A DNA stretch of 63,136 nucleotides, the filler included, from Phoronis australis (Eukaryota; Animalia; Phoronida), in NCBI GenBank assembly GCA_002633005.1. It is 4 parts of 4 records of this genome, joined end to end, with 100 filler letters (N's around TTAATTAATTAA, not from the genome) between each part and the next. Parts side by side here need not be neighbours in the genome. Positions count along the whole stretch, not along the records: positions 1 to 25,104 come from NMRA01000737.1; 3 more parts are not named here. One strand, written 5' to 3'. Below are positions 395-60,999 of the stretch, piece after piece. The notes beneath the pieces were generated by a model. It was not told the origin of the DNA. It was given only the letters and a program-made list of their open reading frames with translations, and did not search any database. Position 1 is the stretch's first letter, and each line of letters begins with the position of its first letter. The position numbers were made by a program, and so were the translations under genes.

Positions 395-2948
395 TAATGA
401 TCAATGAGGTTTTAAAGATTATATTTAGGTGGTTTTCAAAACATGCTTTACATTACAGTATTGTATTATGATCTTACCGATCGATGCTATTATTCTATCA
501 TGGTATTTTCACCTTATTTTGATATTACTCGTCGTGTTTTGTAGATAACTTAACTGCGTTACTCCTCATTTTGATTAAATACCAGCCCAAGTAGAAGTGG
601 TCTAGTCGTGAAATGTAATATTGATACAACTTTGTAGAGAGGTTGATGTTCAACATGCTTGTATCTAGTAAAAATGATCAGACCGTTGTAAGGGGAATTA
701 TTTGTCCACACATTTTTGACATCTCCTCTCTTGAACACTGTCTAAAATAATATGTTCGACAAGGTAAACTATTTTTATTTCACGAGATTAGGTAAATACA
801 TTACATACCCATTTACAGCATACCTGAGCAGCAGGTAAACAGCGAAGAAATGAAATATCATTGAAACAGTGTAAAAAATTGATGATATGTACACATCAGC
901 TACCCTAGTTGTCAATATTGAAGTAGCTTTTGGTAATTTACAATATTAGTAAACAGGGATGTGTTGGTAAGAAAAACATAATCAAGGTATGACAGAGCAG
1001 ATAAATTGTACTTCTGTACAAAGCCATGCACACGTGGAGGACATTGGCAACTTCATTCATTGGCACCATTCAGATAGCTATGAGCAGATCCAATGGTTAG
1101 AAACATATGTTTATCAATCTCCCATAAAATGCTATTATTTTGCCTTTCATATCTTCGACAACGTCTTGCTTTCGGAACAACAGACCATGCAAACAACCAA
1201 TGACAATACAAACAATTATAAACCGGCCGACTTGGGCATATCCACATTGGCGTAAGAGAGACGAATTCTGAAAAACGTGATCTGGACTGTTCGTATTCCA
1301 AGAAAAGAGCAAATAAGCGGTATCTTGTGATTCCTAACTGGTGATTTAATAACATTCTGTTCGTTGGTCGCATTTTGTTTATAAATGACCAATATTCCTT
1401 TGTGTTTTGAAAACGGTATTTATATCTGGACAGTGTTTAATGCTGTTGTCGTGTTTAGCTTGAATTGGTAATTGCTAACTGTACAGCTACATGTACACAC
1501 TGTTTTTATATGGATGAAATATCAGAGGATTGTATGTTTACTGGTGTCTTCTTCGTAATCAAACAGATTTGTTTTGCTTATCTGTCATTTGACGTCGTTG
1601 TTGAACCAAGGTTTGTTTCTAGCTTGATTATTTTAGATGAGCATGGGATAGATACACCTAAATATTCGAAAGGTGTTCTAGCAACAGACAAGACTAATGT
1701 GTTGGTGACGTTGTTGTTAATAATATTTTCCGGGTATACATTAATGTATTCATTCAGCGTGGTAGATAATTGGCGTTTACGTCGTGACATCGGATAAAAG
1801 ACAGGGTCTGGCGATCAAATTGTAGGCCAAAGTGTCCTAGGTGCCAAAAATTGACACACTTTTTTTACGTTTGTGACAGTTACGTAATCCATTGCAGATA
1901 CGTTGAATGTCCGTCGTAAGGAAATGTACTAAAATATTTACACTAATTTTAACCATGCTCTCACTCAGTTTTTAGTACCTACGGAATCTCAATCCATTCC
2001 TCCTTTTACTGACTTGATTTGAAGTAAACGCCTTCAGTACAAATAATATTTTACAGAGAATTTCGGCAGCACAGTTTTCACCCGCCTTCGCAGGTAGGCA
2101 GCGCCATCTATTTTTACTCATGAGAATTAGCGCCAGTTCTGTAGAACTCGGTGCAACATTCTAAAGCGTGCCATAACGGGAACGACGTAACATTGGTCAT
2201 GAAATGGGAAATTTTTATCATGGCCTTGTGACCGGTCTCTTAACTGAAACGTATTTAAGATTTCCAAGGGCACTCAGGTGGTGAAAGTCGAAAGATCACT
2301 TGTATTGTACATCGCACTAGGTCACTAAATAACGGCCATGTTTGTGAATTGATACCAATGACAGTTGAAAAGTAAGCGAGAGTGACGTAAACTTGAAGTT
2401 GTTACATTTTATGCTCTTCTAACCGTCACTGTTATGTTGCCAACTAAATATCCATTTCTCAAAACGAACGCAATGACGTTTGCTTGATCTTCAACAGGCA
2501 AAGTTTTTATTTCAGTGTCAATGCAAAAATGAAAGTCTAATTTTCAGACTTTTTCTATTAGACATACACGCTACTTCTGTACGAGGTTGAATTTTTAATG
2601 ACTAATGAAGTTTCAAGTCAACAATGTTTTGCAGTACAATATGTTATTATTATTTTAAGGAACGATGCTGTTTTTCTATCATGATATTGTTCATTATTTT
2701 AATACTACTCGTCGTATTTTTTCACGTATCAATCAGTCTTCTCTGTTTATGTCCAAGTAACCGTAGTAACCGCTAGTCGCGACGAAAAATCAAATAAAGG
2801 CTAATGCTCAAGATGTTTTATTTTTACTCCTTGGTTTGTTGCCTTAAAAACTGTCGTAATCGTACTGTTACAAATGAAATTCTTAAACACCTCACTGTTT
2901 TGACATCCCTCTTGCCCACCATCTAAACGAAATGTTGGATAAGGTAAA
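395..2948 (+). repeat. Diverged direct duplication (~395-770 vs ~2596-2948)
   Basis: Collinear shared blocks, e.g. cgatgct..ttctatcatg..tactcgtcgt and ttttgacatc..ctcttg..tctaaa..atgtt.ga.aaggtaaa. Confidence 0.6.
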
Positions 2949-4149: not shown

Positions 4150-4248
4150 GGCCGCGAGACAGCACTACGGTGGGCTGCAACAAAGGGCAGCACAGAGGTG
4201 GCGAGGGTATTGCTACAGGGTGGAGCCGATGTAGACATCCAAGACGTG
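4150..4248 (+). CDS. Ankyrin exon 1 (GRETALRWAATKGSTEVARVLLQGGADVDIQDV)
   Basis: ttttgcag acceptor, 99 nt, gtaata donor, phase 0-0, ankyrin consensus. Confidence 0.9.
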
Positions 4249-7200
4249 GTAATAGAAACTACTTCAGACCACTTTACAAATACTGCAGGCTATCTAAAAT
4301 TTAACTAAACATGTTGTGTGTAAATACATATTTTATTTCTCATGATTTCGACATGTATTTTTCAATCTGTACCCGGTACATGCATGTTAAGAAACAGTGA
4401 GGTTTGAATCGTGTCAACAATATATTTATGGAGTTAACGTTAATACTTTATTCTTAATGGCAATCGTCCATTCAATATTTCAACTTTGTATTTAACAGGA
4501 AGCCACTAAACCGGTGCATCAACACCACATGGAGGGGTCACTGTCAAGTTATGGAGGCGCTCAGTAATTTTTGGCAGTCCACGTCTGCACCATGTTATTA
4601 TTGCAACGTTTTAAAATCACCTGTAAAACTTGACTGTTGAAATCGTTACAGGTATTATAGCCTTCTTAGAGGGGTAAGGAATGTTTCATTTATGTCACCT
4701 TACAAGTTCACTTTCCCCCGTGTATGTTAATTAGCTCTAAACGTTGATCGTCCATTCACACATCTCCATTATATATTACATAGGAGGGCTGGACACCGCT
4801 GTACTGTGCAGCACTGCATGGTCATACACAGACAGTGAAGTGTCTAGTTGAACACAGCGCCGCAGTGAATGTCACCGCTAAGGTAATTAATGACACACAG
4901 GTTGTTTGGTTGATCTAGTTGTTTACACAAACGATGCTTAAAACTGAAGAAGAACAAATTTTGTTCATATTTTTACAATTTAATGCCCCTAAACAATGTC
5001 AAATTAAATGTCGTCTGCTTTCCGTTCATGAACCACCAAAACTGCGTAGACTGGTAGAGATAATGCATGACTTACCTGTGTTACCTGTTGTTTTGTTGTA
5101 AAACTTAACATTTCCCTGTTGACATCATTACAAGTATTAGCACCTTAGAGGGATCAGTGATGTTTCATTTATGGCACTTTACAAGTTCACTTTCTCCCGT
5201 GTATGTTAATTAGCTCTAAACGTTGATCGTCCATTCACACATCTCCATTATATATTACATAGGATGGCTGGACACCGCTGCACTGTGCAGCAGGGTGTGG
5301 TCATACACAGATAGTGAAGTGCCTAGTTGAACACAGCGCCGCAGTGAATGTCTATGATAAGGTAATTAATGACACACAGGTTGTTTGGTTGATGTAGTTG
5401 TTTACACAAACGATGTTTAAAACTGATGACGACAAATTTTGTTGATATTTTCACAATTTAATGTCCCTAAACAATGTCAAATTAAATTTCGTCTGCTTTC
5501 CGTTCAAGCTGCGTAGAATGGTAGAGACAATGCAGTGTGACTTACCTGTGTTACCTGTTGTTTGGTTGTAAAACTTAACATATTCCTGTTGATATCATTA
5601 CAAGTATTGCAGCGCCATAGATGGGTCAGTAATGTTTCATTTATGTCACCTTGCAAGTTCACTTTCCCCCCGTGTATGTTAATTAGCTCTAAACGTTGAT
5701 CGTCCATTCACACATCTCCATTATATATTACATAGGAGGGCATGACACCGCTGCACTATGCAGCAGGGTGTGGTCATACACAGACAGTGGAGTGTCTAGT
5801 TGAACACAGCGCCACAGTGAATGTCACTACTAAGGTAATTAATGACACACAGGTTGTTTGGTTGATCTAGTTGATTACACAAACGATGTTTAAAACTGAA
5901 GAAGAACAAATTTTGTTCATATTTTTACAATTTAATGCCCCTAAACAATGTCAAATTAAGTGTCGTCTGCTTTCCGTTTATGAACCACCAAAGCTGAGTA
6001 GACAATGCAGTATGACTTACCTGTGTTACCTGTTGTTTGGTTGTAAAACTTAACATATTCCTGTTGACATCAATACAAGTATTAGCACCTTAGAGGGGTC
6101 AGTGATGTTTCATTTATGTCACCTTTCAAGTTCACTTTCCCCGTGTATGTTAATTAGCTCTAAACGTTGATCGTCTATTCACACATCTCCATTATATATT
6201 ACATAGAGGGGCGAGACACCGCTGCACAGTGCAGCACTGTGTGGTCATACAGCCGTCGTAGAGTGTCTCCTCCAACACGGGGCCAACGTGCATGTCCGCA
6301 ACAAGGTAATTAATAACACACGGGTTTGTTTGAACTAGTTGTTTACACAACGATTATGAAAGTACATTGCACAACACTTTACTAATCTGAATCATTCGGT
6401 GATTTAATAAAAACAATCAGGATTGATGATTTTATTGTAAACTTGACATTTCTCCTTGCACTCCACGTGACGTCCACGTGACGTGACGTGCACGCGATTT
6501 TAACTAATTAGAAACAGTTTTCAGGTCACATGGAGTTGTGCAATGAGTTTGTTATTTACTTGCATTTTCATAGCACTCACTAAATGAATGTCACTCTGTT
6601 GTATATCATCAAGTTGTCATACTTTAAATTATCAGACGAACATTTAAGAAATCTCGCTGAAGTTGTGTGCAGTTAAAATGTCAGGTTGTAGTCACACTCT
6701 GTTGATCCACCCACGTCATGAATATTCAACTGATGGTGAAGTTTTGAACTTGAAAAATATAAAACGTGACGCCTTGTTGAGCCACCCACTTCGCTATATA
6801 TATATATATAATGCTGACCAACAATACCCCATGTTTGCTCACTTGCTGTAGTGGGGTGACACACCGCTACACATGGCGTCAGAGGTAGGGCACGCAGCGG
6901 TGGTGAAGCTTCAAATTATTAAAGGCAGCTGTGACGTGACTGCCGTAGAGAGTGTTGTACTCCGTCTTTAATTCATACTGCAATAAATGTGTTTCATATG
7001 AAAAACGAGTTCGAGGAATTATTCATTTAACATATATATCTCATCAAAAATGATCTACCTCTTACGTGAACCTATACAAGCAGTCATTTCCTTAAAATGT
7101 GTTTACAAGATGATTTGTTTATGATTATTGCGTGAATTTAGTTTGCTTCACTTGGCTCAAAATATCGTGTCGTATTTTCATTTTCGCATATATCATCTTC

Positions 7201-10200
7201 CTGTAATGTGTATCAGTTTTTTCACTTCTTAAGCTAAGTCGGTTTATATGTTTGCAATTTTATTAAAAGGTTATAGTCAGTTTGGAGCGTATCTCAGAAA
7301 ATCACATTTCTCACCAAAAACGGTTCAAATATCACACCACGAATACACGAACAGTAACTTGTGCTAGCTATAGTACAGTGATTGTAAAACAGTGTGGCTT
7401 TTTAAAATTCATTACTGTGATGAATGAATTATCTCTATATAAGATAGATACATATGTTTGAACAGCGTGTGGGTAGGATCATATCCGATGACAAGATTAT
7501 CGTTANTAAGTCTGAGAAAATGAGAGAAAAGTCCATTAAAAAGGCGCAGATGCACAGACCTGAAGGTGGTATCCCGTTTTTTATTCCTCCCGCTCTTTTT
7601 TTAGAAAAAGGTCCACTTAGTCGGAAATTCGAGCACCCCTATGCAAATGTATGACGTAATAGAAGGACAGTGCTTTTGGTATTCAGTCACTTCCTTTGTT
7701 ATTAAAGATATTGGGACCTCTGTATGCAAACAGTGCTGTCAGCTAGGTGAGCAAAGGTAACAATCAACTTGGGTGGTTGAAGTTTTACTTGGCCAGAATA
7801 GCAAGAATTGCCATCTAGCTGTGCTATCATTCTCTATTGCGTTGTTATCGTCAAATGTAATTGACTTCCACTGATTTCGTCACCATATGAACATAATTTA
7901 TTTACAAAAAGAATGAAACCCCTTCGTGAGGTTTAAGAGATGAAGCTGTAAACTGCCTGTAGTCAAGGAATTTAGAATATGCAGTGGTATGTCCTTTTTA
8001 TTTCCTCAGTTGCTTGGAAGCAAGAAGCCTAATTTTCATTTTTATTTTCTTAGTCAGACCGTAAACTGATAGGAAATATTACTTGAAATTACCAGAAACT
8101 TCCAAACTGGTTCCCATAGCACCTCAAAAAATGGCTAAAAATCAAAGACACAAAAACTGGCCAAAAATTTCCGAATTTTTGCATCTTAATGAAGGATAAC
8201 AGAAACCCATTTGAAAATGCAAAGACTGTCTTCTTATAGCGAGGTTCAATAAATTTCAGGTATGCTCACCTGAAAGTACATGGGCCTGTCCAAGAAACTG
8301 ACTCAAGTTCGTTTTAGACTTAAGACTAAGAATTGTCTCAAAGTATTCTCCATTCGACTTCGCGGGCCTGTATATTGCAAAATGGGATGTCCTCAAAGTC
8401 TTTCGAGACCTCTAGGGGTTGTGAGCAAGGAGACCCTGTGTCTCTTTATTTATTTTTACTGTGCGTAGAAATACTGGGTTTGATGACTGGACTTAACAGT
8501 AATGTAAAAGGTATCACATTAAATAACACTCATCAATTTAAAATTCTGTAGTACGCAGGCAACGCTGTCATGGTTCTGTAAGGGTCAGAATACTCACTTA
8601 AATGTACTCTAAACTTACGTGATCAGTATGCCAATTTCTCAGGTCTTCAACCAAATATCGAAAAAGACTCAGTGCGTACTTACTGGTTCCAAAAAACACT
8701 GTGAAACCATCTTATGCTCTCAAAAAAATTAAGATGGACCAGAGAAACTTTTACGGTATTGGGGCTTACATATGCGTCAGTGTAGACTTGGAAAACATTC
8801 CAAATTTATGTTACGAAAAACGGAAGGAAATAAATAAAACATTGTATATCTTTCTGGGTGCGTACGTGTATGTGTTCTTTGTGATTTACAACACTTATTA
8901 AGTAAAAAATTCAGTCAAATTTAAGATCTCTTTCCTGAAATGTACTTGAGAGAGATTTCAGTTCTACCTTAAAATTGGTTGAAGTTTAAGTTTTGTCTTT
9001 GCAAAGCCAATTTTCTTGGTAAAGGCCTGTGGTACCCAGAGTTCTGACCACATGTAAGTAAATATTCAGTAATGCTCTTGTGAAAGCTGCATGGATGTAT
9101 CACTGAAACGATAATGTCCATCTACAATGGCGGGAGCAGCTTTATAGTTTGATTAATTGCAAAGTTGACTACGATTTACATTTTTAACATAAACAATAAA
9201 CGACAACGTAATAAGTCTAAACTAGTTATAAATGTACAATAAATGACACAGTGTAATAAGTCTAAACTAATTATAAAGGTACAATAAATGACACAGCGTA
9301 ATAAGTCTAAACTAGTTATAAGTTTACAATAAATGACAGCGTAATAAGTCTAAACTAGTTATAAAGGTACCAAGCATAATGTGAATCCGTTAGATCATTA
9401 ACCTTGCAGAGAATTCTGTAACTGACGTCAGACGGATTGCTATTTTATTCTACATTTTGTGCACTTGTGTAGTGCAGTTTTGACTTAAAATTGTCACCAT
9501 TTGAATTTGAATATAAATTAAGCTACGTATTTTACAGGATGGAAAAACTGCTTACGATGTCTGTTGGATGGATGCAATAAGAGAGCTCCTTAAGGTAATG
9601 AAACACTTTATTAGTCTCTTGTTATACACAGGCGATGTCACCATTCTTAATAACTGTCGTTTTTATATTGATATCACGACCATGTTGTCAATATTGGCCT
9701 TCATTAATATTGCTGGCATTAAACCGTCAAAAGAGACACATCTCGTGTATAGAGGTAAATATAAGCGTTTAACCAATGACAGTCCTTGTTAAAAACATTC
9801 CACAGTACTACCTTTCATAGCCTTGGGAAAAAGTGAATATCAAATGATACGCGCGGTTCCCTTTCCCCTACGCAGGTAACCAGGCGAGAGCTAATACTGT
9901 GCGTTAACTTTCAAGGTGAGAATTACCCGCGGCCGCTGTTAACGCTATAACCTAGTTGCACGACTGGGCATGCGGCCTTGAAGCTCTTTTTCCTTTTGAT
10001 AATCAAAGTAGGCGAGGTTTCATGTGAAAAACTTGCTTACTGTAGTAATGTTTGGGAATACTTGTTGTTTGAAACTTTTGGTGTGTATTGATTACAACCC
10101 ATGAGAAATATCCAATTATTTACATTTAACAATGTCACCTGCAGCAACACATGGAACAGACTCGACCATCCAAAAAAATGAACCAAAGTGCCGAGTGTGC

Positions 10201-13200
10201 TGGTGAAGTACGACCCCGTGTGTCTGGAGGAGCGACTGTGGGTTCATCCGATCAATGTCCAGAGGGGGCGAGTGCTGCCCCGTCTGACTTGGAGAAGCAG
10301 TTAAGTTCAGTGCTCTCACGTTTTATCTCCTCAAAAGGCAAAACCATCCCCGGCGGTAAGGCAGAGGTCAGCTTTACAGTAAAACAGAAAAACGACAGCG
10401 ACTTGGACATACTGAAGTCTGTTATCAGGCAGTCAGGTAATGGTAAAAGTTCAAGAAGGAGTCAAACTTGATAAACGAATTCCTGTTCCTATTCCAGTTT
10501 CAACGTAAGAGTTCCTATACATGAACTAACTCTTTATTTTCCAGATTACTTCCCACTCATACAGTCTCCTACACAATTAACCGGTTCAACGACACAATTC
10601 CATGCTCCTGGTAAGAACGTGATGTCGGCGGAGTTACACAAGTCTCTTACTGTTGAGCTCCAATCAGTTGTGTTATTGGCAAAAGCAGACGGGACAGGAG
10701 TGGGATCTGGGTTCCGTGTTGGTCCAACTTACGTCATGACAAACTGTCACGTATTAAAAGAACTTAGTCATGAACGTAAGTACGAACTTGCAAGTGTTTG
10801 AACTACGGCATTTTGTTTGTAAACACACAAGTATAGCGATCTGATGGTTTAAAACTATTGGGGTTCAGGCATGAACTACGTTGTTACTTCTCTGACTAGT
10901 GAGAGACCAGTGTAGTTAGCATCAAGACACTCGGTGACGCAAAAGGTACCCGCTCATCCAAAACCTTTACGGCAAACAGATGGCGCTGGATGCAATGATG
11001 CTTTACTAACAACAGGCAGCGCTGCTTACAGTCATGTGACATTCTTGTGTGAACTGAATCTTGACCCAGCACCTTGACCTACATTCTACAGCTGCTGACG
11101 TCACATCGCCGTTGTGCTCAGTGCTTCACTCTTTGTTTATACTGTCAGCTGTTATTAATCATGGCCACCAACATGTTCATATTGCATGGTTCAGTTCGTT
11201 AAATAGATACTATATAAGTTGAAACCACTCTCTTTTGCCTTAGTGTTGATAGAACATAAAATATTACAGACGTTTCTACTTGGTGAACCATCTGCTGCCG
11301 TGCCGTGCCACGGCCAGTCCGGCGGTCTGCTGGGCTCAGTGTTGTTGGCTAACGAGACACTGAACGAAAAAGAAAATATCGCAAGAGAATAAAACCTAAC
11401 ATGTATATCACCATGTATAATTCAAGCATAATTTAAAAAATATAGTGGTTATATTTCAACCTAATTAAAATTATGATTGTTAAGTTGCCAAAATCTCGCC
11501 GGGCGGAAAAGTGGCCGGGCCCGGTTTAGTAGCCTCACCATGGTCACGTTCATTAAATATATATTTTACCCCAGCGTTTAGGCCGAGCAACCACAACAGC
11601 TTAGATTATTAACACTTTCATCTTAATTATATGTTATAAATAGTTATTACAAATGGGGTTTTAAACATGGAATGTCGGACACAAAGAATTCTTTTCCACA
11701 CAAATTCGCCACTCATCAGGACATACACTGTCTGCTTCATGAACTCTCGTGACCTGTGGCTAGTCAGCAGCAGCAGAATGTAGGTCAAGGTGCTTGGTTA
11801 AGATTCTCTGGCAGACAGTCTTATTTGAGCGATAAAATGACACGTGATTGATGAGAAGCGCCATCTGTTTGCCGTAAAGGTTTTGGATGAGCGGGTACCT
11901 TTTGCCTCGGTGACTGTTGCCGTGCATTGAGTTTACATGTGTTGGTAGCGCCATCTGTATAATAGTTCATCTGTTTATCGTACTTTCCCAAAAAATTCTC
12001 AAGCACTTCTTTTCTTTGGATGGCTACTTGCCGATCTACCAAATTTGTTTGCCAAGATACAGATGAATTATTTATGTAGTCAATGTTGAGATACGTTTTT
12101 GATGCGTTTGTCAGCACGCCATCAACTGATATATTTGTCCTGTTCATATCGTCAGTGTATTAGATGTCGCAGGTCGTCCATAGGCATTTGGAAGTCGGAG
12201 GTCTTCCAACTTAACTCAATTAAACACAACCAATATTACTAATAAGACAGCAAAAAACATCAAAATGACTACCATGATAAATAACAAAACTGTGTTGATC
12301 AAAATAACGCCAATGCATTTTAAGGTATAAATTAATATATTTGACCATTTATGGTCAAAGTAGAGTGTGCAATATGATTACAAATCTAACTTAAAAGGTG
12401 CAGACAATTAATTTTCGACACAAAGTTAAGTAATTAATACATTATACAGGGCTAAATTCAACACAAAGTTAACTAATTAATACATTATACAGGTCTAAAT
12501 TCAACACAAAGTTAATTAATTAATACATTATACATGGCTACATTCAAAATGTTGAGGAGCTCCATACAATTCAGTTCTGCCTATAGTTCAGATTGAAAGT
12601 AATTGTTTCGTGCAGACTAAAGCATCCATTGAATTGCGCGTTTTACGGCCTGACCGTGATAGGATTCTGTTTCTGTTACCAAGAAGAACCTCGTAACCCC
12701 AACGACTAGAGTCAAAGTCAGCGCCATTTTCAAATGAGTCAACTCTAATAAACCTTGAAGCGTTTTCTTGTGTCACTTAGGGTTTCCGTGTTTTCCTTTG
12801 CAGTAAAAAGAATTTCATCACTTCAAATAATCTCATGAGACTGACTTCGCGGTAGTACAATGTCTAATTCGATTTTCGTTTTTATCTAACTAAACAGAGG
12901 TGAAATGAAGCTTTAACAGGGAGGATAATCAATAATTGGTTGGACTTCAAAACCACTTGCCCGGACTTCAAAACTACTTGCCCTAACTTCAAAACCACTT
13001 GCCCGGACTTCAAAACCACTTGCTCGGACTTCAAAACCACTTGCCCGGACTTCAAAAGCAGTTGGCTGGAGTGCAAAACTGAATGACTGGTGTTCTAACT
13101 TGGTGGTCGGACCTCAAAACGGATTGGTGGATACCTCAAAACCAGATGGCCGATCCCGAAAAATCGAACTGGTTGGCCGGAACTAAAGCGGTTTTGCCTG

Positions 13201-16109
13201 TGCTCAAACACAATGGCCGAACATATCGCTGATTTTGAGCAAAACAAACAAACGGGTACGACAAATAAACACTAGATGTCACGTGAATCCTCCCAGACAT
13301 TCAAAACCAGTTTCCGAGGAAGTCCAGCCGCCGTGTTTGTCTTCTGGCCAACTGGTTATAGCACTGGTCATCGTGTTTTGGGTCCAGCCAAGTAGTTTTT
13401 GGGCGTGAGGCCATAGCGTTTTGAAGTTCTGACAACACGTTTAATCCCCAGCCGACTGGTTTTGAAGTCTACCAAGTCCAACCAATTGTTTAAGACCAAA
13501 AAGTTTTTACATGTTAAAGTGGAGTCATTTATTGCATTTTATATTCCATGAGTGGGTTGATACACGATATTGCAGCACATTTAAATCAAACAAAAACGTT
13601 TTTATGGATAGACAGAGTGTATTTACACTTAGAACTAAAAAATTTACAGAAAATTGCGGCTTAATATGGAGTATGCGTTTTTTGATTGACACAGGCGTGT
13701 GCTCGCAGCGTTTTTCGACTCTCCTGGTTGCGTAAAATCTGCTATTTGCGACCTCAAACACAGCACAGTTTCCACCGTTATTTTCCCGGGCTGTCAACAG
13801 CAGGAAAACATTTCTATTGCTATTTCCATTCCAAAACCAAAGACAAGAAAATAGACGTAGAAAACTACGGAATTCATCGAAGCTAAAGCGACACACTGTT
13901 GCACGCACGTGCTTTAATTTTTATATTCCTGGATGGATTGTTTTTAAGTTCCGAGGAACTTTAATTATTATTGAATTGTTCATCGTTTTAACTTGAAATC
14001 TCACAAACTGAAAATTCTTATAAATTCAATATGAAATGAAGTTTACTAGTTATTAAACGTCACGGATTATCTCATCCTTTACTGGGGGGGGTAGGCTTGA
14101 TATAGATATGACGTCATATGACAAGCCAAAGTACATCACAATCAGATGTAGTCGCAAAGCAAATGTGTTCATATATATATACATATGTGTGTTGAATAGG
14201 TTATCCTATGTACATAGGAATACTACTACAATACTGTATTTCGAATTCATTTCATCTGGGACATCCCTACATGAAATTGATTCTCGATAGGGTTTGGCAG
14301 TAGTATTCCTATGTATGTGGGATAATTTACATAGCACGTTAAGTAGAGTCATTTAGTGCGTTCCATAATGCATTATGAGCTGATACACCTTATCATTGAG
14401 GCTAAGAGACGAGAAAAACGTGTTTCAATATGTATTTTCAAATTCCATTGTCGGGCATGATAACCCCACCTACAGTATTACAAGTGAAACAGTGTTGCAC
14501 TAACAGCTTCTGTCAAGTATCATCAGGGACTAAACACAATTATTTTGTTGTAGTCTGCTTGTTGGGTAGTGTGTATCAACCTAACAGCTCTGACCAGTTT
14601 GTTGTGCATTTCTAATATGTATTTTACAGCCAAGGATAACGTGGCTGTATTCAATTTTGACAAGCCTCGTCTGTTGGGCACAGATGGTGTCGGAGCAGCG
14701 CCTATCCGCGCCATATTGGCTCATTGCGAGGACCTCGATGTGGCCGTCCTAGACCTTGATTTCAACGCGTCACTCCCAAGAGCCTTCAACCAATGTCAAA
14801 GGATCAATAAGTACTCGCTTCCACCGCCAATTACTGAGTTTGCGACTATCGATGCGCGGGAGTATATTCATTTTGTTGGACATCCAACTGGCGAATGGAA
14901 AGTTTTGGATACTCTGTGCACTATTGACCGTACTTGTACATCGCCACACAATACACAAAAGGTGCGATAAGATTCACAATGTCACTCAAAATGAGTTCGA
15001 TATGACCTATAATGTAGGTCTACTTTTGTTCATTTTTAAATACAACCAATTAAGCTAGTTATACATGTCAATGTAGGATGAAAGATGTTTTACATACCTA
15101 GAAGTTATATCGGAAGGATTACTAGACTTTTTCCAGCTGAGTGTTTGTAAGATAAAACATTTCACTGACGGGAATTTCCATAGATAAGATCATGGGCGTG
15201 TGAAACTAATCAGAAAATGAAAAATTTTAGGCGTTTTAACAACACCAAATAAATGCCCAGCTGTTTATTTGGAAAGGGGGTGTGGTGTAAACGGAAAGTC
15301 ATAGTTATACTGACTTTGACATGTGTTTACTTAAACCACGTTTTTTAAATTTTATGTTATTAAATGCATATTTCATTTCATTAAATTTTATTTTAATAAA
15401 CGCATAGTTTGTTTTTTTTTAAATTTTATGTTAAATGCGTAGTTCGGCAACACCTTATTCGTTTTCACAAATGATAAATGTTCCACGAAATTGAATTTGT
15501 GACAAAAAAGTTGACGCTGAGTGGGCTTTTAAAAGAAAATTTTCCAAATAAACGCCCCACTGTCAGGACACTTGACACCACAAGTTGTAACACCAAATAA
15601 ACGCCCATGGGCGTGTATTCGGCATAGTTTTCCAAATTAACGCGCATGTGCATTTCATCGGATGGGCTGATCTACGGAAATTTCCAGTACGTAGAATATT
15701 GTCATATTTCAATTATCGGAAGGTATAGTTTGCTTGCATCAGTGACCGACATGTTTTAACATATAATTTTGCCATGTTATTCTTGCAGCTCCTTGGGCTA
15801 CACAGGAAATATAAAAACGATATGTTCAAGACTATAACAGACAAACGGCGAGCACTTTACCAATCCAGCTCAAAATTCGGCAGCGGCAGCTCGGGAAGTC
15901 CAGGGTTTGTAGCTAACCATCAAAAACGGGCTTGCGTGGCCGTCATGCACTCGTGCGGACATGTCATAAGGGTGGCGCCTGGGGAATTTCATCTTGATGC
16001 TATTGAGCAGGGAGTGAGGATGGAGTGTGTCTACGAGTTCTTGTTACATAATTATGCTGAGTTGTGTATGGACATTTTCCGTGGAAAAAAGCCAGCTCGT
16101 GTAGTGTGA
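4150..16109 (+). CDS. Spliced gene: ankyrin-repeat + FAM111-like trypsin-like serine protease fusion (11 visible exons, 5' end not identified)
   Basis: Manual splicing gives one open frame with matching phases: join(4150..4248,4784..4882,5263..5361,5736..5834,6207..6305,6852..~6953,9538..9594,10145..10436,10545..10775,14630..14961,15789..16109). All introns are GT-AG. TPLHxAA..GH ankyrin motifs are followed by TNCHV / LDVAVL / GSSGSP protease motifs. Confidence 0.88.
4499..4600 (+). pseudogene. Degenerate (frameshifted) ankyrin exon remnant
   Basis: tttaacag acceptor preceded by atcgtccattca, as upstream of the array exons. Reads EATKPVHQHH, then +1 shift WRGHCQVMEAL; the phase-0 frame hits TAA. 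Confidence 0.4.
4784..4882 (+). CDS. Ankyrin exon 2 (EGWTPLYCAALHGHTQTVKCLVEHSAAVNVTAK)
   Basis: acatag acceptor, 99 nt, gtaatt donor, phase 0-0. Confidence 0.92.
5263..5361 (+). CDS. Ankyrin exon 3 (DGWTPLHCAAGCGHTQIVKCLVEHSAAVNVYDK)
   Basis: acatag acceptor, 99 nt, gtaatt donor, phase 0-0. Confidence 0.92.
5736..5834 (+). CDS. Ankyrin exon 4 (EGMTPLHYAAGCGHTQTVECLVEHSATVNVTTK)
   Basis: acatag acceptor, 99 nt, gtaatt donor, phase 0-0. Confidence 0.92.
6207..6305 (+). CDS. Ankyrin exon 5 (RGETPLHSAALCGHTAVVECLLQHGANVHVRNK)
   Basis: acatag acceptor, 99 nt, gtaatt donor, phase 0-0. Confidence 0.92.
6852..6953 (+). CDS. Ankyrin exon 6 (WGDTPLHMASEVGHAAVVKLQIIKGSCDVTAVES)
   Basis: ctgtag acceptor, TPLH motif; donor ambiguous (GT at 6954 or 6957, both phase 0). 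Confidence 0.85.
8282..9028. mobile_element. Diverged Harbinger-type MITE copy interrupted by a LINE fragment
   Basis: Ends gggcctgtccaagaaactgact ... agccaattttcttggtaaaggcc; both arms align to the MITE at 52443-52685. Confidence 0.6.
8345..8860 (+). mobile_element. L1/Tx1-type reverse transcriptase fragment (degenerate)
   Basis: SRGCEQGDPVSLYLFLLCVEILG..VKGI..KIL*YAGNA..GSEYSL..FSGLQPN; contains stops. Confidence 0.85.
9195..9370. repeat. Minisatellite, ~45-bp unit, ~3.7 copies
   Basis: (gcgtaataagtctaaactagttataaaggtacaataaatgacaca)n. Confidence 0.9.
9538..9594 (+). CDS. Ankyrin C-capping half-repeat exon (DGKTAYDVCWMDAIRELLK)
   Basis: ttttacag acceptor, 57 nt, gtaatg donor; GKTAxD terminal-repeat motif. 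Confidence 0.85.
10145..10436 (+). CDS. Linker exon (Ser/Gly/Ala/Pro-rich, then a probable structured segment)
   Basis: ctgcag acceptor in frame with ORF 10151; 292 nt, CAG|gtaatg donor, phase 0-1 fits both neighbours. Confidence 0.78.
10545..10775 (+). CDS. Protease exon with catalytic His (GSGFRVGPTYVMTNCHV)
   Basis: ttttccag acceptor, phase 1-1, gtaagt donor; His codon 10748-10750. Confidence 0.9.
10939..11905. mobile_element. Non-autonomous Mutator-like (MULE) DNA transposon in a protease intron
   Basis: Perfect 49-bp TIR GCAAAAGGTACCCGCTCATCCAAAACCTTTACGGCAAACAGATGGCGCT, further imperfect subterminal inverted repeat, 9-bp TSD CTCGGTGAC (10930-10938, 11906-11914). Confidence 0.9.
12418..12548. 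repeat. Tandem repeat, 43-bp unit, 3 copies
   Basis: (acacaaagttaa.taattaatacattatacagg.ctaaattca)n. Confidence 0.85.
12515..13196 (+). repeat. Dispersed repeat copy A (probable non-autonomous DNA element)
   Basis: Highly similar to 20268-20880; contains a 21-bp gacttcaaaaccacttgcccg tandem array at ~12943-13060. Confidence 0.85.
14630..14961 (+). CDS. Protease exon with catalytic Asp (EDLDVAVL) and FAM111-type IHFVGHPTGEWKVLDTLC motif
   Basis: ttttacag acceptor, phase 1-0, AAG|gtgcga donor; Asp codon 14737-14739. Confidence 0.9.
15789..16109 (+). CDS. Terminal protease exon with catalytic Ser (FGSGSSGSPGF ... VMHSCG ... IEQGVRMECV)
   Basis: tcttgcag acceptor, phase 0; Ser codon 15891-15893; TGA 16107-16109. 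Confidence 0.9.
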   Translation, partial: LLGLHRKYKNDMFKTITDKRRALYQSSSKFGSGSSGSPGFVANHQKRACVAVMHSCGHVIRVAPGEFHLDAIEQGVRMECVYEFLLHNYAELCMDIFRGKKPARVV

Positions 16110-16285
16110 TCTGTCATGGTCTTGGTCAAGCCAGCTTGTGTAGTGATCTATGATGGTCTTGGTCAAGCCAGCTTCGTGTAGTGATCTGTCATGGTCTTGG
16201 TCAAGCCAGCTCGTGTAGTGATCTATGATGGTCTTGGTCAAGTAAGCTCGTGTAGTGATCTATGATGGTCTTGGTCAAGTGAGCT
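16090..16285. repeat. 37-bp minisatellite, ~5 copies, overlapping the stop codon
   Basis: (agccagctcgtgtagtgatctatgatggtcttggtca)n. Confidence 0.92.
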
Positions 16286-20267: not shown

Positions 20268-20880
20268 TTAATTAATACACTATACAGGGCAACATTCAAA
20301 ATGTTGAGGAGCTCCATCCAATTCAGTTCTGCCTATAGTTCAGATTGAAAGTAATTGTTTCGTGCAGACTAAAGCATCCATTGAATTGCGTGTTTTACTA
20401 TGGTTAATCGGCCTGACCCTGATAGGATTCTGTTTCCGTTACCCACAAGAACCTCGTAAGCCCCAACGACTAGAGTCAAAGGCAGCGCCATTTTCAAATG
20501 AGTCAACTCTAATAAATCTTGAAGCGTTTTCTTGTTTCACTGATGGTTTCCGTGTTTTCCTTTGTAGTAAAAAGAATTTCACCACGGCAAATAATCGCAT
20601 GAGACTGACTTCAAGGGAGTACAATGTCTAATTCGATTTTCGTTTTTATCTACATGTAAGTAAAGAGAGGTGAAATGAAGCTTTAACAGGGAGTGGAATC
20701 AACAATTGGTTGGACTTCAAAACCGCTCGCCTAGACTTCAAAACCAGTTGACTGGAGTGCAAAACTGATTGGCCGGTGTTCTAACTTGGTGGTCCGACCT
20801 CAAAACGGGTTGGTTTGTACCTCAAAACCAGATGGCCGAACCCGAAAAATCGAACTGGTTGGCCGGAACTAAGGCGGTTT
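20268..20880 (+). repeat. Dispersed repeat copy B
   Basis: Highly similar to 12515-13196. Confidence 0.85.
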
Positions 20881-21306
20881 TTTCTCTACTATTTTCTCTG
20901 CAGTATTTTTCTGTGGTATGTTCAGGCTTTATTTGCACTGTTGCAAACAGTGAAATTTCATTTGCATGTCTTCGTAACTGCAGGTTTTAAAGATGCAAAG
21001 AGACAACATTCGAGGCAAATGGGTGAAGTTAAGCTGATGATGTGCAGGTTCATCACGCTGGACGAAACTATGTCAAATCTAATATTTATGTTATTAAGAT
21101 TTATTAGATATTTATCAACCACAAGATTTTAGGAAAATGTCGAATCTTGCGCAGCGTCAGGTGGGACCCTACAAAACTGTCCACATTTGGGTAACTTTGG
21201 AACATCATATCTCAGAGCTGGATGGTCGGATTCTTCTGCAGCTTTCAGATACGGTGCTCCATGAAGTGTTCCACAACACCTTGTTAGGAATTGTTTTTAA
21301 AATGTC

Positions 21307-21438: not shown

Positions 21439-24400
21439 CATCTGTAGTTCTTCATATCACACAATATGGCAGACAAGTGAAATTTCGTTTTGTTTATTTT
21501 TTCCAAGAAAATGAAGATATTTTAGTCAATAACTAGGTGGGTTTGGAAAGTTTTGATGATGTCATTAAATAATATTTGGAAAAATTGCCATTATTGAAGG
21601 AATTTAATCGAACTTAATTTGGTATGCTTTCGTTTTATCATTTGTGCACAAATAGGGAATTGTTTTGTATTCGTGTAATCTCTGAATTATAATAAATTTA
21701 TGCTAAACAAAGCGGTCTTTACGATGTCTTTGGTTATCATAGTGGCTGATCATGACCACAAATGTTCTTGTCAAGCTGTGCAGTATATTATTTGGTATTT
21801 GAATTTAATCATTGAGTTCCTCCTGCAGTGCGATCGTACAAGGATGGACAAGAAGCGTGTTTCCTTGTTCAGAGCTTGTGTCAGGGGAAAAATGAATTGA
21901 TAGCAGAATGTAGGTTAACCTGCCAAAGTTTGAGATCACTATCCATTATAGCATGTACTACAGGTAAAAATAAATAACAATTCTGACTTTCATCATATGA
22001 CACGCTTATATATGTCGCGTCACTTACCTGCAAGTAATGCTGTGTCAGTGGCCAAAGATTGAATTCTTTAGACAACAACATGGTATTGGAGGGCAGAAAT
22101 ATCCACTTTTCCACAACGCCCTCCTTGGCAATCTCATCTTCAGCATCTGTCATGTCCATCTCGTTTACACCATACCATGACGTAGACTCAACTGCTGAAC
22201 AGTGACTTAGAGCCGCAAAAGTCAAACTGTCCGTCTCAGCTGCCAACAGAGCAGTCTTCGTTTTGACTTTAAAGGGACCCAGCCAAAACCTCGGAAAGTC
22301 CACTCCCATTAGCGTTACCCAGGTAGGTTCTTTTTAAGCCATCACAAGAGCAAAATGTCGAGCACTCTTTTGGTTCGCTTTCACACGGTGGATCATTTCC
22401 ACGTCAAGGTCATGATTACAGACGATATGGAGGTTAATTAATACCTCCATGTTGCATCTAAGACTTGCATGACTTCATATGTGGGGAGAAATCCCCTGAC
22501 CTCATGTCCTAAAACTCCGGTCTTTGATTCTGTCTCACCAGAGGCTAGCTTTAGCGTTTCTGCTAGGTTTGCGTAAAGTTGTTGACAACTTCGCAGCTAA
22601 TGCACAACATTCCTTTGCCTAACCGGACTTATTGAAAGGAAGCTAATGTCCTTCTGGGCCACATCGACAAACGAATTAAGTCTCCTCTCTGTCCATCTTA
22701 TGAGGTGTTCCAGAGAGACTTTCATGAGGTGGAGCCACCAGACTCATTAAGACACTTGGTGTTCTTGGAATGCCTGGGCCTTGGAATGCCTGGGCCTTTA
22801 AACCTTCGGTAGTTTCTTTTGCAGACGCTGTCCCTTCCTCTTCCCCCTTAATGCATCATTTTAGGAGAGCACAGGTGTGAAACCGTCAGCAACAGTCAAC
22901 ATAGTCAGACTACAATTCGCTCCCCAGGGAGTATGAGAGAGCTCAGATATGGTATGTCAAACGGTGACCAATGGGGATAGTCGAAAGCAAAGAATAAAAG
23001 TGCGTATAAAGTACTTGAGTCGAGTCTGTCTAGGCATTCAACTTATTCATGGCCCGACCACATTGTCTTCCTGCATCGCGATCGTACATGGTCAAGCATT
23101 AGGTTCAATATCTCTCTCGAAATAAGGTAAAACTCTCAGCGTCAGTGGTCGCCCTTACGCTAGAGTCATCTCCAAATGTGTGTGCATGCATCCATTACCA
23201 GACCCTAAGTACTTCCCATGCCTCACCAGGCACGAGCGTGCCACCTAAGACAGCGGGGCTGCCCTGTCTTCAGCGGCCTAACCAAAAACTCTTATTTCAA
23301 AGCACTGTGTTGTCTCTCACCTTCTGCACCTTAGATACTGCTTTAAAACTCAAGAGGACTGCGTGGCCAGTAGGCCGCAGTTTTCTTGACACTTGGTCAG
23401 AAACATATGATAGACACTTAAGTAATGTGCGGCAGAATCAAATAACGTGCAGTCCCCATCAGTCCATAGCCTCCTCTCAAAGACTGTAGGAATTTTACGA
23501 CTTAAGTCGTCAACTATCGGCCACGACCACAAGAGACAACTAGCCACAGAAAGCAGCACCAAGATGTTGAGGTGTGTTTAGTCTAATCTCTACATTTCGA
23601 CATGACAGGAAAAGGTGAACATGATTTTTAAATCAAATTCTCGCATATAGGCGCATGCGCTTAAGTTCTACAATTAAGCGCAGGCGGTGCTCCGGTTGTA
23701 GGCGCACATTAACTGATTAAAAACTAACTCAATGCATTTTATTTCACGCAGCGTTTGTCGATAGTGACACACTAGGTGAGTCCTGGGACATTTAAATTCT
23801 AATCATACATAGTATTAAAACTCATTACACGCTTTGTTTCCAAAGAACGACTTAGTTTTTTAAAAGTATAAACAACATCTTGTTCATCTCATCTAAAAAT
23901 ATATTTAACTGCAATCGAGGAGTTGTGATTGTTTAGACTAACTGTCTACTACCGTGGAATTGGCTTTCACTTTTAATCCGCAGACTTATTTTCCTGCCAA
24001 GACGACAAGCAGTAAAAGTTCTTCGGCAACATGTCATTAGAAAGAAGTTGTATTATAATTAATCCACGTGTAGAGGTGCTTTTTGAAAAACATTGAAGGC
24101 GCGTTTACACTGTATGTATGGAGTACCATAATCTATCAAATTCTAATCAAGTGTCCTGGATTCAGGCACAAACGCCCAAGTCCCGCGATTAGGAGTAATC
24201 CTGCAATTAGGCACATGTGCCTATTTGAATGGATACAAAGTATACATATTAGTCAACACGACATTCCATTTGCACTTAGCGGCTGTGATTGACAAACTAT
24301 CCAATTGGCGTCAGTCAGATTTAGCTGTAACCAGGTATCAGTTTGTACAACAATTTCCCAAACTTATCCTATCCAGAAGAGTTGAGAACCTTTCCATAAG

Positions 24401-47287: not shown

Positions 47288-48359
47288 TTTATTTCGGAGG
47301 TTGTTTGTTGCCGTGAAAGTATGATTATACCCACTCTGTAATCAGCAAGATAAAACCTCACCCTTTTGTGAGTTGGCACAGTCATTAAGACTGACCCATT
47401 TTGGTGAGAGCCTCAATGAAAGAGTCGACTTTTCTGATAAAATAATTACGCAAAGTTATTATTTACAGGGAATTGAATTTCAGCAAGAATCTCTCTAGGC
47501 TGTATTCTTTTTAACACAAGAAGCCTCAGTTGTATATGAAACCTTGAGTGGTTTTGGTGGAAAAATGGATCATTTTATACAGTTCCAACCAAAAAGTAAA
47601 TATTTTTGTGTGGAATTTATTTGGAAATTCGCCCTTTCATGCTGACTTTTGTAATGCCTGAGTTACTGGTCAGAGGGGCACATTTGGTCATATGCAATCT
47701 ATGCAAGTGTCCTCTCTCTCCTGGACCCAGACTCGTCGACTGTTTCAATTTTTGCTTTCCACATTCACATGACATCAAGTGTTGCAGTTTGCAACAATCA
47801 TCTATTAATTTCAGTCTAATTGCNATTATTTCGGAGGTTGTTTGTTGCCGTGAAAGTATGATTATACCCACTCTATAATCAGCAAGATAAAACCTCACCC
47901 TTTTGTGAGTTGGCACAGTCATTAAGACTGACCCATTTTGGTGAGAGCCTCAATGAAAGAGTCGACTTTTCTGATAAAATATTACACAAAGTTATTATTT
48001 ACAGAGAATTGAATTTCAGCAAGAATCTCTCTAGGCTGTATTCTTTTTAACACAAGAAGCCTCAGTTGTATATGAAACCTTGAGTGGTTTTGGTGGAAAA
48101 ATGGATCATTTTATACAGTTCCAACCAAAAAGTAAATATTTTTGTGTGGAATTTATTTGGAAATTCGCCCTTTCATGCTGACTTTTGTAATGCCTGAGTC
48201 ACTGGTCAGAGGTGCACATTTGGTCATATGCAATCTATGCAAGTGTCCTCTCTCTCCTGGACCCAGACTCGTCGACTGTTTCAATTTTTGCTTTCCACAT
48301 TCACATGACATCAAGTGTTGCAGTTTGCAACAATCATCTACTAATTTCAGTCTTATTGC
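47288..48359. repeat. ~536-bp near-identical tandem duplication joined by a single N (probable assembly artefact)
   Basis: N at 47824 lies exactly at the junction; only a handful of differences between copies. Confidence 0.85.
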
Positions 48360-58121: not shown

Positions 58122-59490
58122 TTATTTATTTATAGGATTTATTGAGACATATACACATGGCCATAGGCCCCAAGTATATCATGTACAAGACAGAACATTG
58201 TTAGGTGCCACGTTTCAAACTGGATAATACATTATGACGCTTGAGAGCGTGATGGACGAATTTAATAAGTAGGCTATCTGGAGTTCTCATGAGAGAATCA
58301 AATTTAGATGTCGTTGGAGAATGACAAAAACGATCACTTAAGTACTTAACCCGAAGGTCTTGGTAGGCACTACAAACTAACACAAAGTGGTATTCGTCCT
58401 CTACACACCCAGAATTACACATAATTCACACAACCTGTTTTCATAGGGAATATTTGTGTGGCGACCTCTTTCCACTAGTAACGAATGATTTGAACATCGC
58501 AATCGAGTCAGAGACTGGATAAAAACACGTGGGATACCAACCATTTCTAGATAATTCTCAAGATGATACTTTGTTTTGCACCCACATAGTAAGGCAGTTT
58601 TGCGTTACATTCGATATCAGATTGCACGCCTTGCAAATAACAGTCGTTGACACTTTGAGAAAAAACAGTCAAGAAATACGCTTGACTTACTACACCCTGA
58701 TTAATCCATACATCTGAAAAACCATACACAGACAGAAGTTTCCTTAAAAAACTAGCCCAATTATAGGAAGATCCTCCGATCAGGTCTGACTGAAAAAGCA
58801 TATCATACGCAGCTTTTACCCCACAATTACTAGGCATCTCCAGTATTTTGAACCAGTATTTTAAACAAGAAACAAAATATTTTGTAGACCATGGGAATCG
58901 ACCACATTCTCCCATAATTGCCAAGTTTGGACAACAATTGCCTACTCCTAAAATGCGTTTACAAAACTTGATATGTACATTTTCCAATTGTTCATATTCC
59001 TTAAAGCCCCATATCTCAGCGCCGTAACACAGAGAGGGGTAAACTATTTTATCGAACAAGTGAAAGGCTATTGACGGGGGCAGATCACGACATCTTCGCT
59101 TTAATTTACAAATTGCAGAGGCAGCTTTATTTGCTTGACTAGATAAGGCTTTAATGGCTTTGGTCCACGAAACTTTTGGAGTTATAAGTAGTCCAAGGTA
59201 TTTGTAATGAGGCACCACATCAACCAATGTTCCATTGTAAAACCATTTCTCATATCGTCTTAGGGGACCGCCATTCTGAAAACGACCACTTTAGTTCTTT
59301 TCAAGTTTACTTGCATGCCCCATGATTTGCAAAATTCTGCCAAACAATTAAGCATACGTTGTAAGTTGATGGCGGTAGAGAAACATAACACCATATCGTC
59401 TGCGTACAGTAGGGAGTTAACTCTTGGCACTTGTTCGCTGAGATATGTGCTATTTATATTACTTTTCACACTCATTTGATTCAGAAATTC
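58122..59490 (-). mobile_element. 5'-truncated non-LTR retrotransposon (RTE-X-like), RT and C-terminal Cys/His motif
   Basis: LLYADDMVL, VNLKRTKVVVF, YKYLG, CYGAEIWG, CNSGCVEDEYHFVLVC; frameshifted; AATAAA at the 3' end. Confidence 0.9.
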
Positions 59491-60999
59491 ATTTAGATAC
59501 AACACAAATAATAATGGGCGCTTTATTCAAGTGTCACACCTCAGAGCGCTTTCATTTGGTTTTCGATTTTTCTTCCCAACTATATTTTTCAGCAAAAGTC
59601 ATTGAACTAATTAAAGTCGCTGTATTTAACCATGATCTGGTGTTTGAATGGCTAAGCTTTTTTCACAGGCGTATTTGCTTTTCTAAAGCAATATCATTAC
59701 TTGAATATCTAAGCATTGAAATTGGTTTCAATAAATTGCTATTGACGGTCACTCAACCGTCGCCACTAAATCTAACCGGTAATGAGCCTGGGCTAAAGCA
59801 ATAACACAATGTCACTTTTTCTCAAGCGCGGAAATCATTTCAAATCAGTGTGAGGAATGGTGAATGTGCTAAATGTAAATATGTTTTTGTCAGAAGGCGT
59901 GGGTTTGATGTTTATCTAATAAAATGTCGACCTGAAAGATGCCTCCTGGTTTTAAAATGTGCTAAAATTGGTTCTTGTCGACAACCCAAGACAGACAGTA
60001 GAACAACACGTACAATGGAAGAGATTGACATAGTTCCTATTTTTGGATTGATATTTTTGTCATGTTTCCAATATTTACGATAACAAGTAAAAACTGTTTT
60101 GCAAGACCCTTGTAAAATTTGGAAATATGAGCTTTGGATAACAAACGTCTCTTGTTTTTAATGACCAAGGAAGTGTTTATTAGACAGCTTTGTATCAACA
60201 AACGCAAGTGTAGTTTCTGCAGTAGTTTCTCGTAAGGGATCTTTGTGAGGAAGTAGTATTCACATGGTCTTTGGATGAAATATGATTGGTAATCGCTCTC
60301 AAAAAATAGTCACGCAGTGCACCACTTATTAATTTTGTTGCCCAACTGGGTCCTTGAAGTATGAAAAACCGGAATATACTGGTGTTGTTCAGGGTGTCAT
60401 CTCCGAACTCAGGCTGACAGGCTCGAAACTTTATTGTGCGGTATGACTAAGTTGTAAATTTGACAGTTTACTAGAATGGTGTCATGAAATTGTTCAAACG
60501 TCTTGCCGATTTTTCAGTACAGAGTTAGATCCCGGGAACTAAAAGTGTATTTCTACTACTGACAACATCCTTGTTTCGAGTATTTTTGATTCCACTCAAC
60601 ATTTAGAGCGCGTTAGACATAAATCCAGGGGCAATGGCAAATTCGCATAATGGTCATAGGCAGGTCAGCAATATCGAGGAAAGCCTCCAGTTTTTTCGAC
60701 TAAAATAACCGAAAAAGATTCAGGGTGTTGACATGCGCATCGCATACAGTGCTATTACAATTGGTGTTATTTAATGTATATTACGAAAAATACAATCCAC
60801 AATAATAAGAGTTAAGCCCAGAACGCGCATTATATATTGCATATGTATCAGTCAATACACATGATTGTACATTTAAATATGTAATATACAAATGCAACAA
60901 GAAATTCAGTGATATATGCAAGATTACCATTGCAATGGAATAGGTTTTTCATTGCTTTTCGATATGATTGTTCAAAGGTAAAATCATTTACTAAAAAGC

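Follow-up and report, generated by a model that had tools for sequence, protein, structure and literature searches.

Do the ankyrin exons and trypsin-fold protease exons at a locus of Phoronis australis form a single gene, and what might its product do? The locus lies in a stretch of DNA of 63,136 nucleotides, filler included (the window). It had been interpreted in a sequence-only reading as 11 GT-AG exons in one frame of about 610 amino acids, encoding six ankyrin repeats with a cap and a protease with a His/Asp/Ser triad. The features of the locus, all on the plus strand, are as follows.

752..763, +, another copy of the candidate at 2932..2943, from the duplicate comparison
2932..2943, +, candidate for the end of the first coding exon, with an ATG, 4 codons and a phase-0 donor; one of nine upstream ATG-to-donor candidates
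4150..4248, +, ankyrin exon 1: 33 codons, phase 0 (Pfam Ank E-value: 1.7e-7)
4634..6354, +, tandem exon-plus-intron array: period 473, 3.6 copies, 87% matches
4784..4882, +, ankyrin exon 2 (Pfam Ank E-value: 1.3e-8)
5263..5361, +, ankyrin exon 3: 88% identity to exons 2 and 4
5736..5834, +, ankyrin exon 4: 88% identity to exon 2; RNA joint to exon 5
6207..6305, +, ankyrin exon 5 (Pfam Ank E-value: 1.8e-11): older in its 3' half, homogenised with the array in its 5' half
6852..6953, +, ankyrin exon 6 (Pfam Ank E-value: 3.8e-6): open frame with a weak donor; the RNA runs skip it
9538..9594, +, ankyrin C-cap exon: 19 codons; RNA joints on both sides
10145..10436, +, linker exon: RNA puts its donor at 10437; no Pfam family
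10545..10775, +, protease exon A: carries the catalytic His (10748-10750), a predicted dimer helix and, at 10598, a Phe in the FAM111A autocleavage register
14630..14961, +, protease exon B: carries the catalytic Asp at 14737-14739 and, at 14875-14910, the GHP motif
15789..16109, +, protease exon C: catalytic Ser 15891-15893; equivalents of the S1-pocket His and Glu; stop

Gene structure and transcription

The 11-exon model consists of the exons listed above, from 4150-4248 to 15789-16109, with exon 8 (the linker) taken as 10145-10442. Spliced from the window sequence, it bears out the single frame: 611 codons plus a stop, open throughout, with GT..AG at all 10 introns and the triad codons at 10748, 14737 and 15891. 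Nine of the 10 donors are strong; the weak one (GTTGTA) belongs to exon 6.

Three stranded RNA runs were used, chosen by species label and derived from animals other than the DNA sample. Sense-strand joints were found at 5834/6207 (exon 4 to 5; 7 reads in RNA run X8), 6305/9538, 9594/10145 (9 reads, two of three runs), 10436/10545 (13, 15 and 17 reads in the three runs), 10775/14630 (36 reads, all three runs) and 14961/15789 (17, 23 and 35 reads in the three runs). In stranded reads ankyrin exon 5 is joined to the cap exon, and the chain continues through every protease exon. The ankyrin and protease parts are encoded on one transcript, as had been proposed, and the junction reads include those at 9594/10145 and 10775/14630, the two joints singled out in that proposal. 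The joint 6305/9538 bypasses exon 6, on which read depth is low, and the RNA places the end of exon 8 at 10436 instead of 10442. The RNA-corrected model, with exon 6 left out and the earlier exon 8 donor, has five repeats and 575 amino acids. The earlier description of six repeats plus a cap holds for the cap exon, which is used in the RNA, but the repeat number in the main transcript is likely five.

All four ankyrin exons scanned (1, 2, 5 and 6) pass the Pfam Ank cut-off. The linker exon matched no Pfam family; its single-sequence fold gave two helices in a low-confidence model (pLDDT 52), and that of protease exon C (pLDDT 42) was unusable. The spliced frame contains no ATG, and the 5' end is missing in both the 611- and the 575-residue models. 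A diverged copy of 340-770 has the candidate first exon at 2932..2943 at its end; the likeness stops at the donor, and no RNA support was seen for the exon.

Most RNA reads are only 90-95% alike to the window (1443/1877, 1198/1658 and 1978/2400 in the three runs), and at 10210, 10227, 10420 and 15932 non-window letters stand in all or nearly all reads. At the first three of these positions the RNA letter differs in every read, and both forms are present in DNA run X2 (about three contigs). The expressed copy may be an allele or a paralog of the window copy, with the RNA coming from close copies. Such reads, together with the unused exon 6 and the start codon that was not found, could also mean that the window holds a paralog that is silent or in decay, a sister locus being the source of the RNA. 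This is quite unlikely, as every exon is open, the triad is intact and all donors but one are strong. High polymorphism alone could account for the mismatch, the RNA and DNA animals being different, and the ankyrin-protease architecture holds in either case.

Variation in the ankyrin exon array

In the 473-bp array, introns and framework codons are near-identical and the amino acid changes are clustered at predicted binding-face codons. This array and its variation are new relative to the sequence-only reading, which had overlooked them, and they strengthen the sensor logic that it suggested. The introns of the array are 92-95% alike and exons 2-4 are 88% alike. In the first 15 codons of four units, a segment picked after the alignment was seen, 12 of 45 columns are variable, none with a silent change; the intron next to it has 1 variable column in 65 (p = 7e-5). 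Across units 2-4, variable columns number 18/99 in the exon and 34/360 in the intron (p = 0.015). Variation affects five of the six positions that are randomised in a designed ankyrin library (PMC4308713) and 7 of the 27 other positions (p = 0.016, same counts). The units entering these tests are few and mutually non-independent, and pairwise pN and pS do not differ significantly in any of the six exon pairs (p = 0.16-0.84).

Several variant codons are common to different units and to the older exon 5. Since the tested ankyrin positions are the naturally variable ones, an appearance of selection could also arise through relaxed constraint or through conversion in which older repeats are the donors. 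The summed depth of DNA run X2 on ankyrin exon 5 is 1289, against about 20 for a single contig, and many look-alike ankyrin exons are present in this run. The look-alike exons, the shared codons (as conversion would give) and the non-significant pN/pS would all suit a housekeeping or stress protease, for example one that clears chromatin protein obstacles as FAM111A does at forks. The ankyrins would then be an ordinary adaptor, and their variation would simply follow from unequal crossover and from conversion with older ankyrin exons as donors. Such a role is unlikely. The homogenised segment has 12 variable columns without any silent change, and conversion tracts from diverged donors should carry silent changes. 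Invertebrate FAM111 proteins, moreover, have neither UBL nor PIP (PMC9798293).

Protease domain

The protease is likely of the FAM111 type, judged from motif order and spacing. The triad residues are spaced by 45 and 109 residues (54 and 102 in FAM111A), and Atlas gave 0.94 to a Trypsin_2-type cluster. Four vertebrate FAM111A sequences have 49 invariant columns, and 31 of these are kept here (by eye from Supp. Fig. 3a of PMC10920703, with no shifting for gaps inside motifs, and scored against FAM111A alone). A Phe, a Lys, a Leu and a Ser-Val pair stand at the exact spacing of FAM111A F334, K348, L350 and S356-V357; the equivalent of V347, at the FAM111A dimer interface, is His, and that of V351 is Thr, as in zebrafish. 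The motifs GHP-G-K-D, G-S-SGSP-F, MH-G and IE-G-M and the helix spacing also follow FAM111A. In a shuffle test 8/8 motifs occurred in order, against at most 3 in 20000 shuffles, with patterns that were fitted after both sequences had been seen and are not counted as independent support.

Profile and PDB searches bear out the earlier assignment only in part. The expected Ank matches pass, but Trypsin_2 on protease exon A (E-value: 0.0023) is below the cut-off and no FAM111-like match is significant. With exons searched singly against PDB, the best match of protease exon B to FAM111A has an E-value of 1.4 and ranks under two chance matches, and exons A and C gave no FAM111A match. Motif order and spacing agree with the published alignment, whereas no score is significant.

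An origin in another intracellular trypsin-fold lineage (bacterial Trypsin_2 type, HtrA-like or NAL1-like) is improbable, although some matches point that way. The Atlas neighbours are bacterial and viral trypsin-fold clusters, and MarP and HtrA models match weakly, at the His motif only (E-values: 0.0015-0.11). Against these stand the motifs and helix spacing shared with FAM111A, and neither a PDZ nor a Nal1 family was matched (Nal1_C and NAL1_N in Pfam, with exons scanned singly, an insensitive search). The serine motif of HtrA/DegP (S1C) proteases is GNSGG; here it is GSSGSP, and the stop follows the protease domain with no PDZ match. Secreted S1A trypsins have GDSGGP (chymotrypsin in the published alignment), and PF00089 was not matched by exons scanned singly.

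Searches for homologues and partner genes

Word-index searches with single exons returned no homologue (exon C, 0/80; exon A, 0/71; exon C residues 33-98, 0/34). A HMMER search of exon B against 1.84 billion representatives gave two matches, both to BspA-type LRR proteins, which were rejected as chance. None of the related-locus pattern matches was confirmed (metagenome, 0/75; viral, 0/14), and PADLOC matched 0/4 exons. Pfam scans of 137 of the 153 other open frames, and of 12 in a separate scan, yielded a reverse-transcriptase remnant and nothing else; there is no partner gene among the scanned open frames of the window. Within the window, no NACHT or NB-ARC was found in the exons or the scanned upstream open frames.

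Proposed model

We give about an even chance to the following reading: one spliced gene encoding an ankyrin array and a C-terminal protease, which is likely FAM111-type, likely intracellular and likely a target-recognising defence protease. The protein, of which the first exon is only a candidate, is likely intracellular; no transmembrane stretch occurs in the 575 amino acids (19-residue hydropathy maximum: 1.08). Its putative immune role as a sensor-protease would work as follows. The ligand of the ankyrin array would be a fast-changing protein, probably of foreign origin. On binding or clustering, two protease domains would pair through the helix by which FAM111A dimerises, and this would put the active site in order. 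Cleavage would then fall on the bound target or, within the enzyme itself, on the Phe that precedes the helix; prolonged activity could be lethal to the cell, as is seen when FAM111A is overexpressed. New specificities would come from duplication and conversion of exon-plus-intron units, with the frame kept. In FAM111A, activation depends on the dimer and autocleavage occurs at F334 (PMC10920703).

The sequence signature is silent on the selective agent, and the array might instead be diversifying for self/non-self, gamete or symbiont recognition. This is very unlikely, since known FAM111A biology is antiviral and cytotoxic (antiviral and apoptotic activity: PMC9798293, PMC7534640, PMC13245274) and the predicted cytosolic location fits intracellular parasites better.

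Comparison with known systems

The combination of a variable repeat module and an effector also occurs in bacterial repeat-fused proteases of gasdermin and Avs systems, from which the Phoronis locus differs in having no PADLOC match and no partner gene found in the window. The exon-shuffled repeat receptors of brown algae (Ectocarpus type; candidate immune receptors) share with it one in-phase exon per repeat, the omission of a repeat exon from transcripts and variation concentrated in the repeat domain. Those receptors have LRR or TPR repeats, whereas this is an ankyrin gene of animal type whose effector is a protease without a GTPase or NB-ARC switch, and no inverted repeat exons were found at the locus. 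Fungal NLRs with ANK, TPR or WD40 repeats (PMC12258605) likewise couple a variable repeat module to an effector, but here no NACHT/NB-ARC occurs in the exons found and the repeats are N-terminal.

With FAM111A and FAM111B (PDB 8S9K, 8S9L; PMC9798293, PMC10920703) the protein shares the C-terminal trypsin fold, the order of the triad, the GHP and SGSP motifs and the His and Glu of the S1 pocket; a predicted helix before strand 1, with the K348/L350/S356/V357 spacing, and a Phe in the autocleavage register also correspond. Unlike in these proteins, the protease is split across three exons, and an ankyrin array takes the place of the PIP box and two UBL domains. Vertebrate FAM111A orthologues have two UBLs (and a PIP box in placental mammals), where ankyrin exons fill the N-terminal part here. 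Coral and lancelet FAM111 members without UBLs have been described (PMC9798293); ankyrins have no occurrence in that review.

The same review proposes antiviral defence as the first role of the family and replication-fork duty as a later one. An invertebrate FAM111 member with a fast-changing binding array would make this proposal testable. It would also be an animal case of repeat shuffling at the exon level in which the effector is a protease, and could serve as a natural model for intracellular proteases that can be retargeted. In its broadest form the idea is tentative and rather doubtful: invertebrates would have single-chain immune receptors as a class, each with a DARPin-like ankyrin array, exon-shuffled and directly coupled to a FAM111 protease that dimerisation activates, without an NLR switch. 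Such a protease would be reprogrammable by nature, its specificity changing as exons are duplicated, converted or skipped, and defence would be the ancestral job of FAM111, with UBL and PIP added later.

Gene structure and transcription

The ankyrin-protease locus is a real, spliced gene, composed as follows.

4150-4248, 4784-4882, 5263-5361, 5736-5834, 6207-6305 and 6852-6953, plus strand: exons 1-6, ankyrin repeats
9538-9594, plus strand: exon 7, cap
10145-10436, plus strand: exon 8, linker (end by RNA; 10442 in the 611-codon frame)
10545-10775, 14630-14961 and 15789-16109, plus strand: protease exons A, B and C

All 11 exons proposed by the sequence-only reading are present. Splicing by coordinates gives 611 codons and a stop codon at 16107-16109, with GT..AG at 10/10 introns. 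Exons 1-7 are all in phase 0, and the Pfam Ank cut-off was passed by 4/4 ankyrin exons scanned. Comparison within the window found no second copy of the protease. Intron layout and base composition are consistent with an invertebrate animal. A 37-base tandem repeat (16089-16279) encloses the stop codon, and in RNA reads the untranslated part occurs in a form shorter by 129 bases.

Stranded RNA from three runs labelled as the same species (X6, X7 and X8) was compared with the window, using approximately 18-19% of each run. Sense-strand reads cross the joints 6305 to 9538 (3, 3 and 17 reads in X6, X7 and X8, with 8, 2 and 3 more in a form with three letters replaced), 10436 to 10545 (13, 15 and 17), 10775 to 14630 (8, 9 and 19) and 14961 to 15789 (17, 23 and 35). 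Joint 5834 to 6207 has 7 reads in X8. Joint 9594 to 10145, at which the first exon base differs, has 5 reads in X6, 4 in X8 and none among the matches listed for X7. These joints run from the ankyrin exons through all protease exons, and the two modules therefore form a single chain, as had been proposed; the junctions 9594/10145 and 10775/14630 of that proposal are both borne out.

Six repeats had been counted, and the 11-exon frame is open with exon 6 included, but among the joints listed for X6, X7 and X8 none enters or leaves this exon. X8 covers exon 6 to a depth of approximately 1, versus 12 in the bin that holds the cap exon (57 bases), and exon 6 has the one weak donor of the gene. The RNA-supported model has five repeats and the cap (575 aa). 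Exons 1-4 were seen joined to one another solely in contigs, with letters replaced at the joints. A jump backwards from exon 4 to exon 3, present in one X5 contig, 1 X7 read and 3 X8 reads, points to copies with a different repeat number or order.

In intron 1 (4250-4680), sense-strand RNA depth is high (137 X8 reads at 4386), with other letters in nearly all reads; a possible source is related ankyrin loci in which this intron is transcribed as an untranslated end. The long protease intron contains an inverted repeat pair (10927-11917) with RNA reads from both strands, probably a small transposon.

Most RNA reads share 90-95% of their letters with the window, and four sites (10210, 10227, 10420 and 15932) have a non-window letter in every read or almost every one. 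These mismatches suggest strong polymorphism or a close paralog; in the latter case the window copy could be silent. Exon 8 is found in about three contigs of DNA run X2, some with the RNA letter; summed contig depth does not equal copy number. Because the RNA letters differ at fixed sites, expression is established for the architecture, the window haplotype excepted.

The spliced 611-codon frame contains no ATG. Nine upstream ATG-to-donor candidates exist. Two of them close the copies of a duplicated and since diverged block, at 340-770 and 2510-2950, whose likeness ceases at the donor. Each copy of the block ends with an ATG and a phase-0 donor, possibly a duplicated promoter and first exon. 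Either start would lengthen the protein by four residues without supplying a signal peptide, and the protein is likely intracellular, its start exon being a candidate for which no RNA support was seen in X6, X7 or X8.

Variation in the ankyrin array

Exons 2-5 lie within a 473-base exon-plus-intron repeat. Among units 2-4, introns diverge at 5-8% of sites versus 12% for exons, and variable columns number 18/99 in exons versus 34/360 in introns (p 0.015). In a homogenised segment of four units, picked after viewing the alignment, 12/45 exon columns vary versus 1/65 intron columns. The exon variants there are confined to codons 1, 3, 7, 8, 11 and 12, and every one alters the residue. A designed ankyrin library (PMC4308713) randomises binding-surface positions 2, 3, 5, 10, 13 and 33, which correspond to exon codons 33, 1, 3, 8, 11 and 31. 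In units 2-4, 5/6 of these codons vary versus 7/27 elsewhere (p 0.016, computed for a DARPin position set having identical counts). Pairwise pN versus pS is significant in 0/6 exon pairs, which counts towards a less likely rival of the proposed defence role, a housekeeping adaptor. Taken together, these differences suggest repeats that evolve in concert under diversifying selection at the predicted binding face, in a small and non-independent sample.

Protease domain

The His, Asp and Ser of the triad noted earlier are all kept (10748, 14737 and 15891). By eye, 31/49 invariant FAM111A columns are kept relative to the four-species alignment in the supplement of PMC10920703. In FAM111A, F334 is the autocleavage residue; the window protease has a Phe, a Lys, a Leu and a Ser-Val pair spaced like F334, K348, L350 and S356-V357, and counterparts of the S1-pocket residues H556 and E573, whereas V347 is replaced by His. 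The His at V347 counts against a FAM111 assignment, and so do the homology searches, whose reach was limited by the use of single exons: in PDB, FAM111A was matched by exon B only (E-value: 1.4, below two chance matches) and not by exons A or C, and the Atlas search gave bacterial and viral trypsin-fold clusters, one scoring 0.94 and one, a lead only, 0.86. The less likely rival is a protease from a different lineage. The FAM111-type assignment of the sequence-only reading has support from motif order and spacing but from no significant search score; it is quite probable, at a level below proof of membership. The motifs of HtrA and of secreted trypsins are absent from the window protease.

Proposed mechanism

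FAM111A activation depends on dimerisation, and the enzyme cleaves itself (PMC10920703); PMC9798293, PMC7534640 and PMC13245274 describe antiviral action and apoptosis upon overexpression. The proposed model is as follows. The ankyrin array would bind a changing foreign target, clustering would dimerise the protease, and the dimer would cut the target or set off cell death. Its observed base is the fusion, the triad and the binding-face variation, the last of which might, less probably, reflect recognition of something other than a pathogen; as a whole, this defence mechanism is given an even chance.

No paper on an ankyrin-FAM111 fusion was among the literature matches listed, subscription papers and preprint supplements being outside the scope, and the architecture may be in UniProt/InterPro as automatic annotation. 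What appears new is a receptor-like variable array on a protease of known kind, with putative family breadth and function.

Other elements in the window

58550-59526, minus strand: broken LINE-type retrotransposon remnant (RVT_1, E-value: 1.6e-10)
12516-13204 and 20268-20890: dispersed repeat of approximately 600 bases, two copies 85-96% alike
21884-22333, minus strand: open frame of 150 codons, in DNA richer in G+C, that matches no Pfam family and may be a decayed mobile element
47289-48275: near-identical (98-99%) tandem duplicate of 537 bases, possibly an assembly artefact
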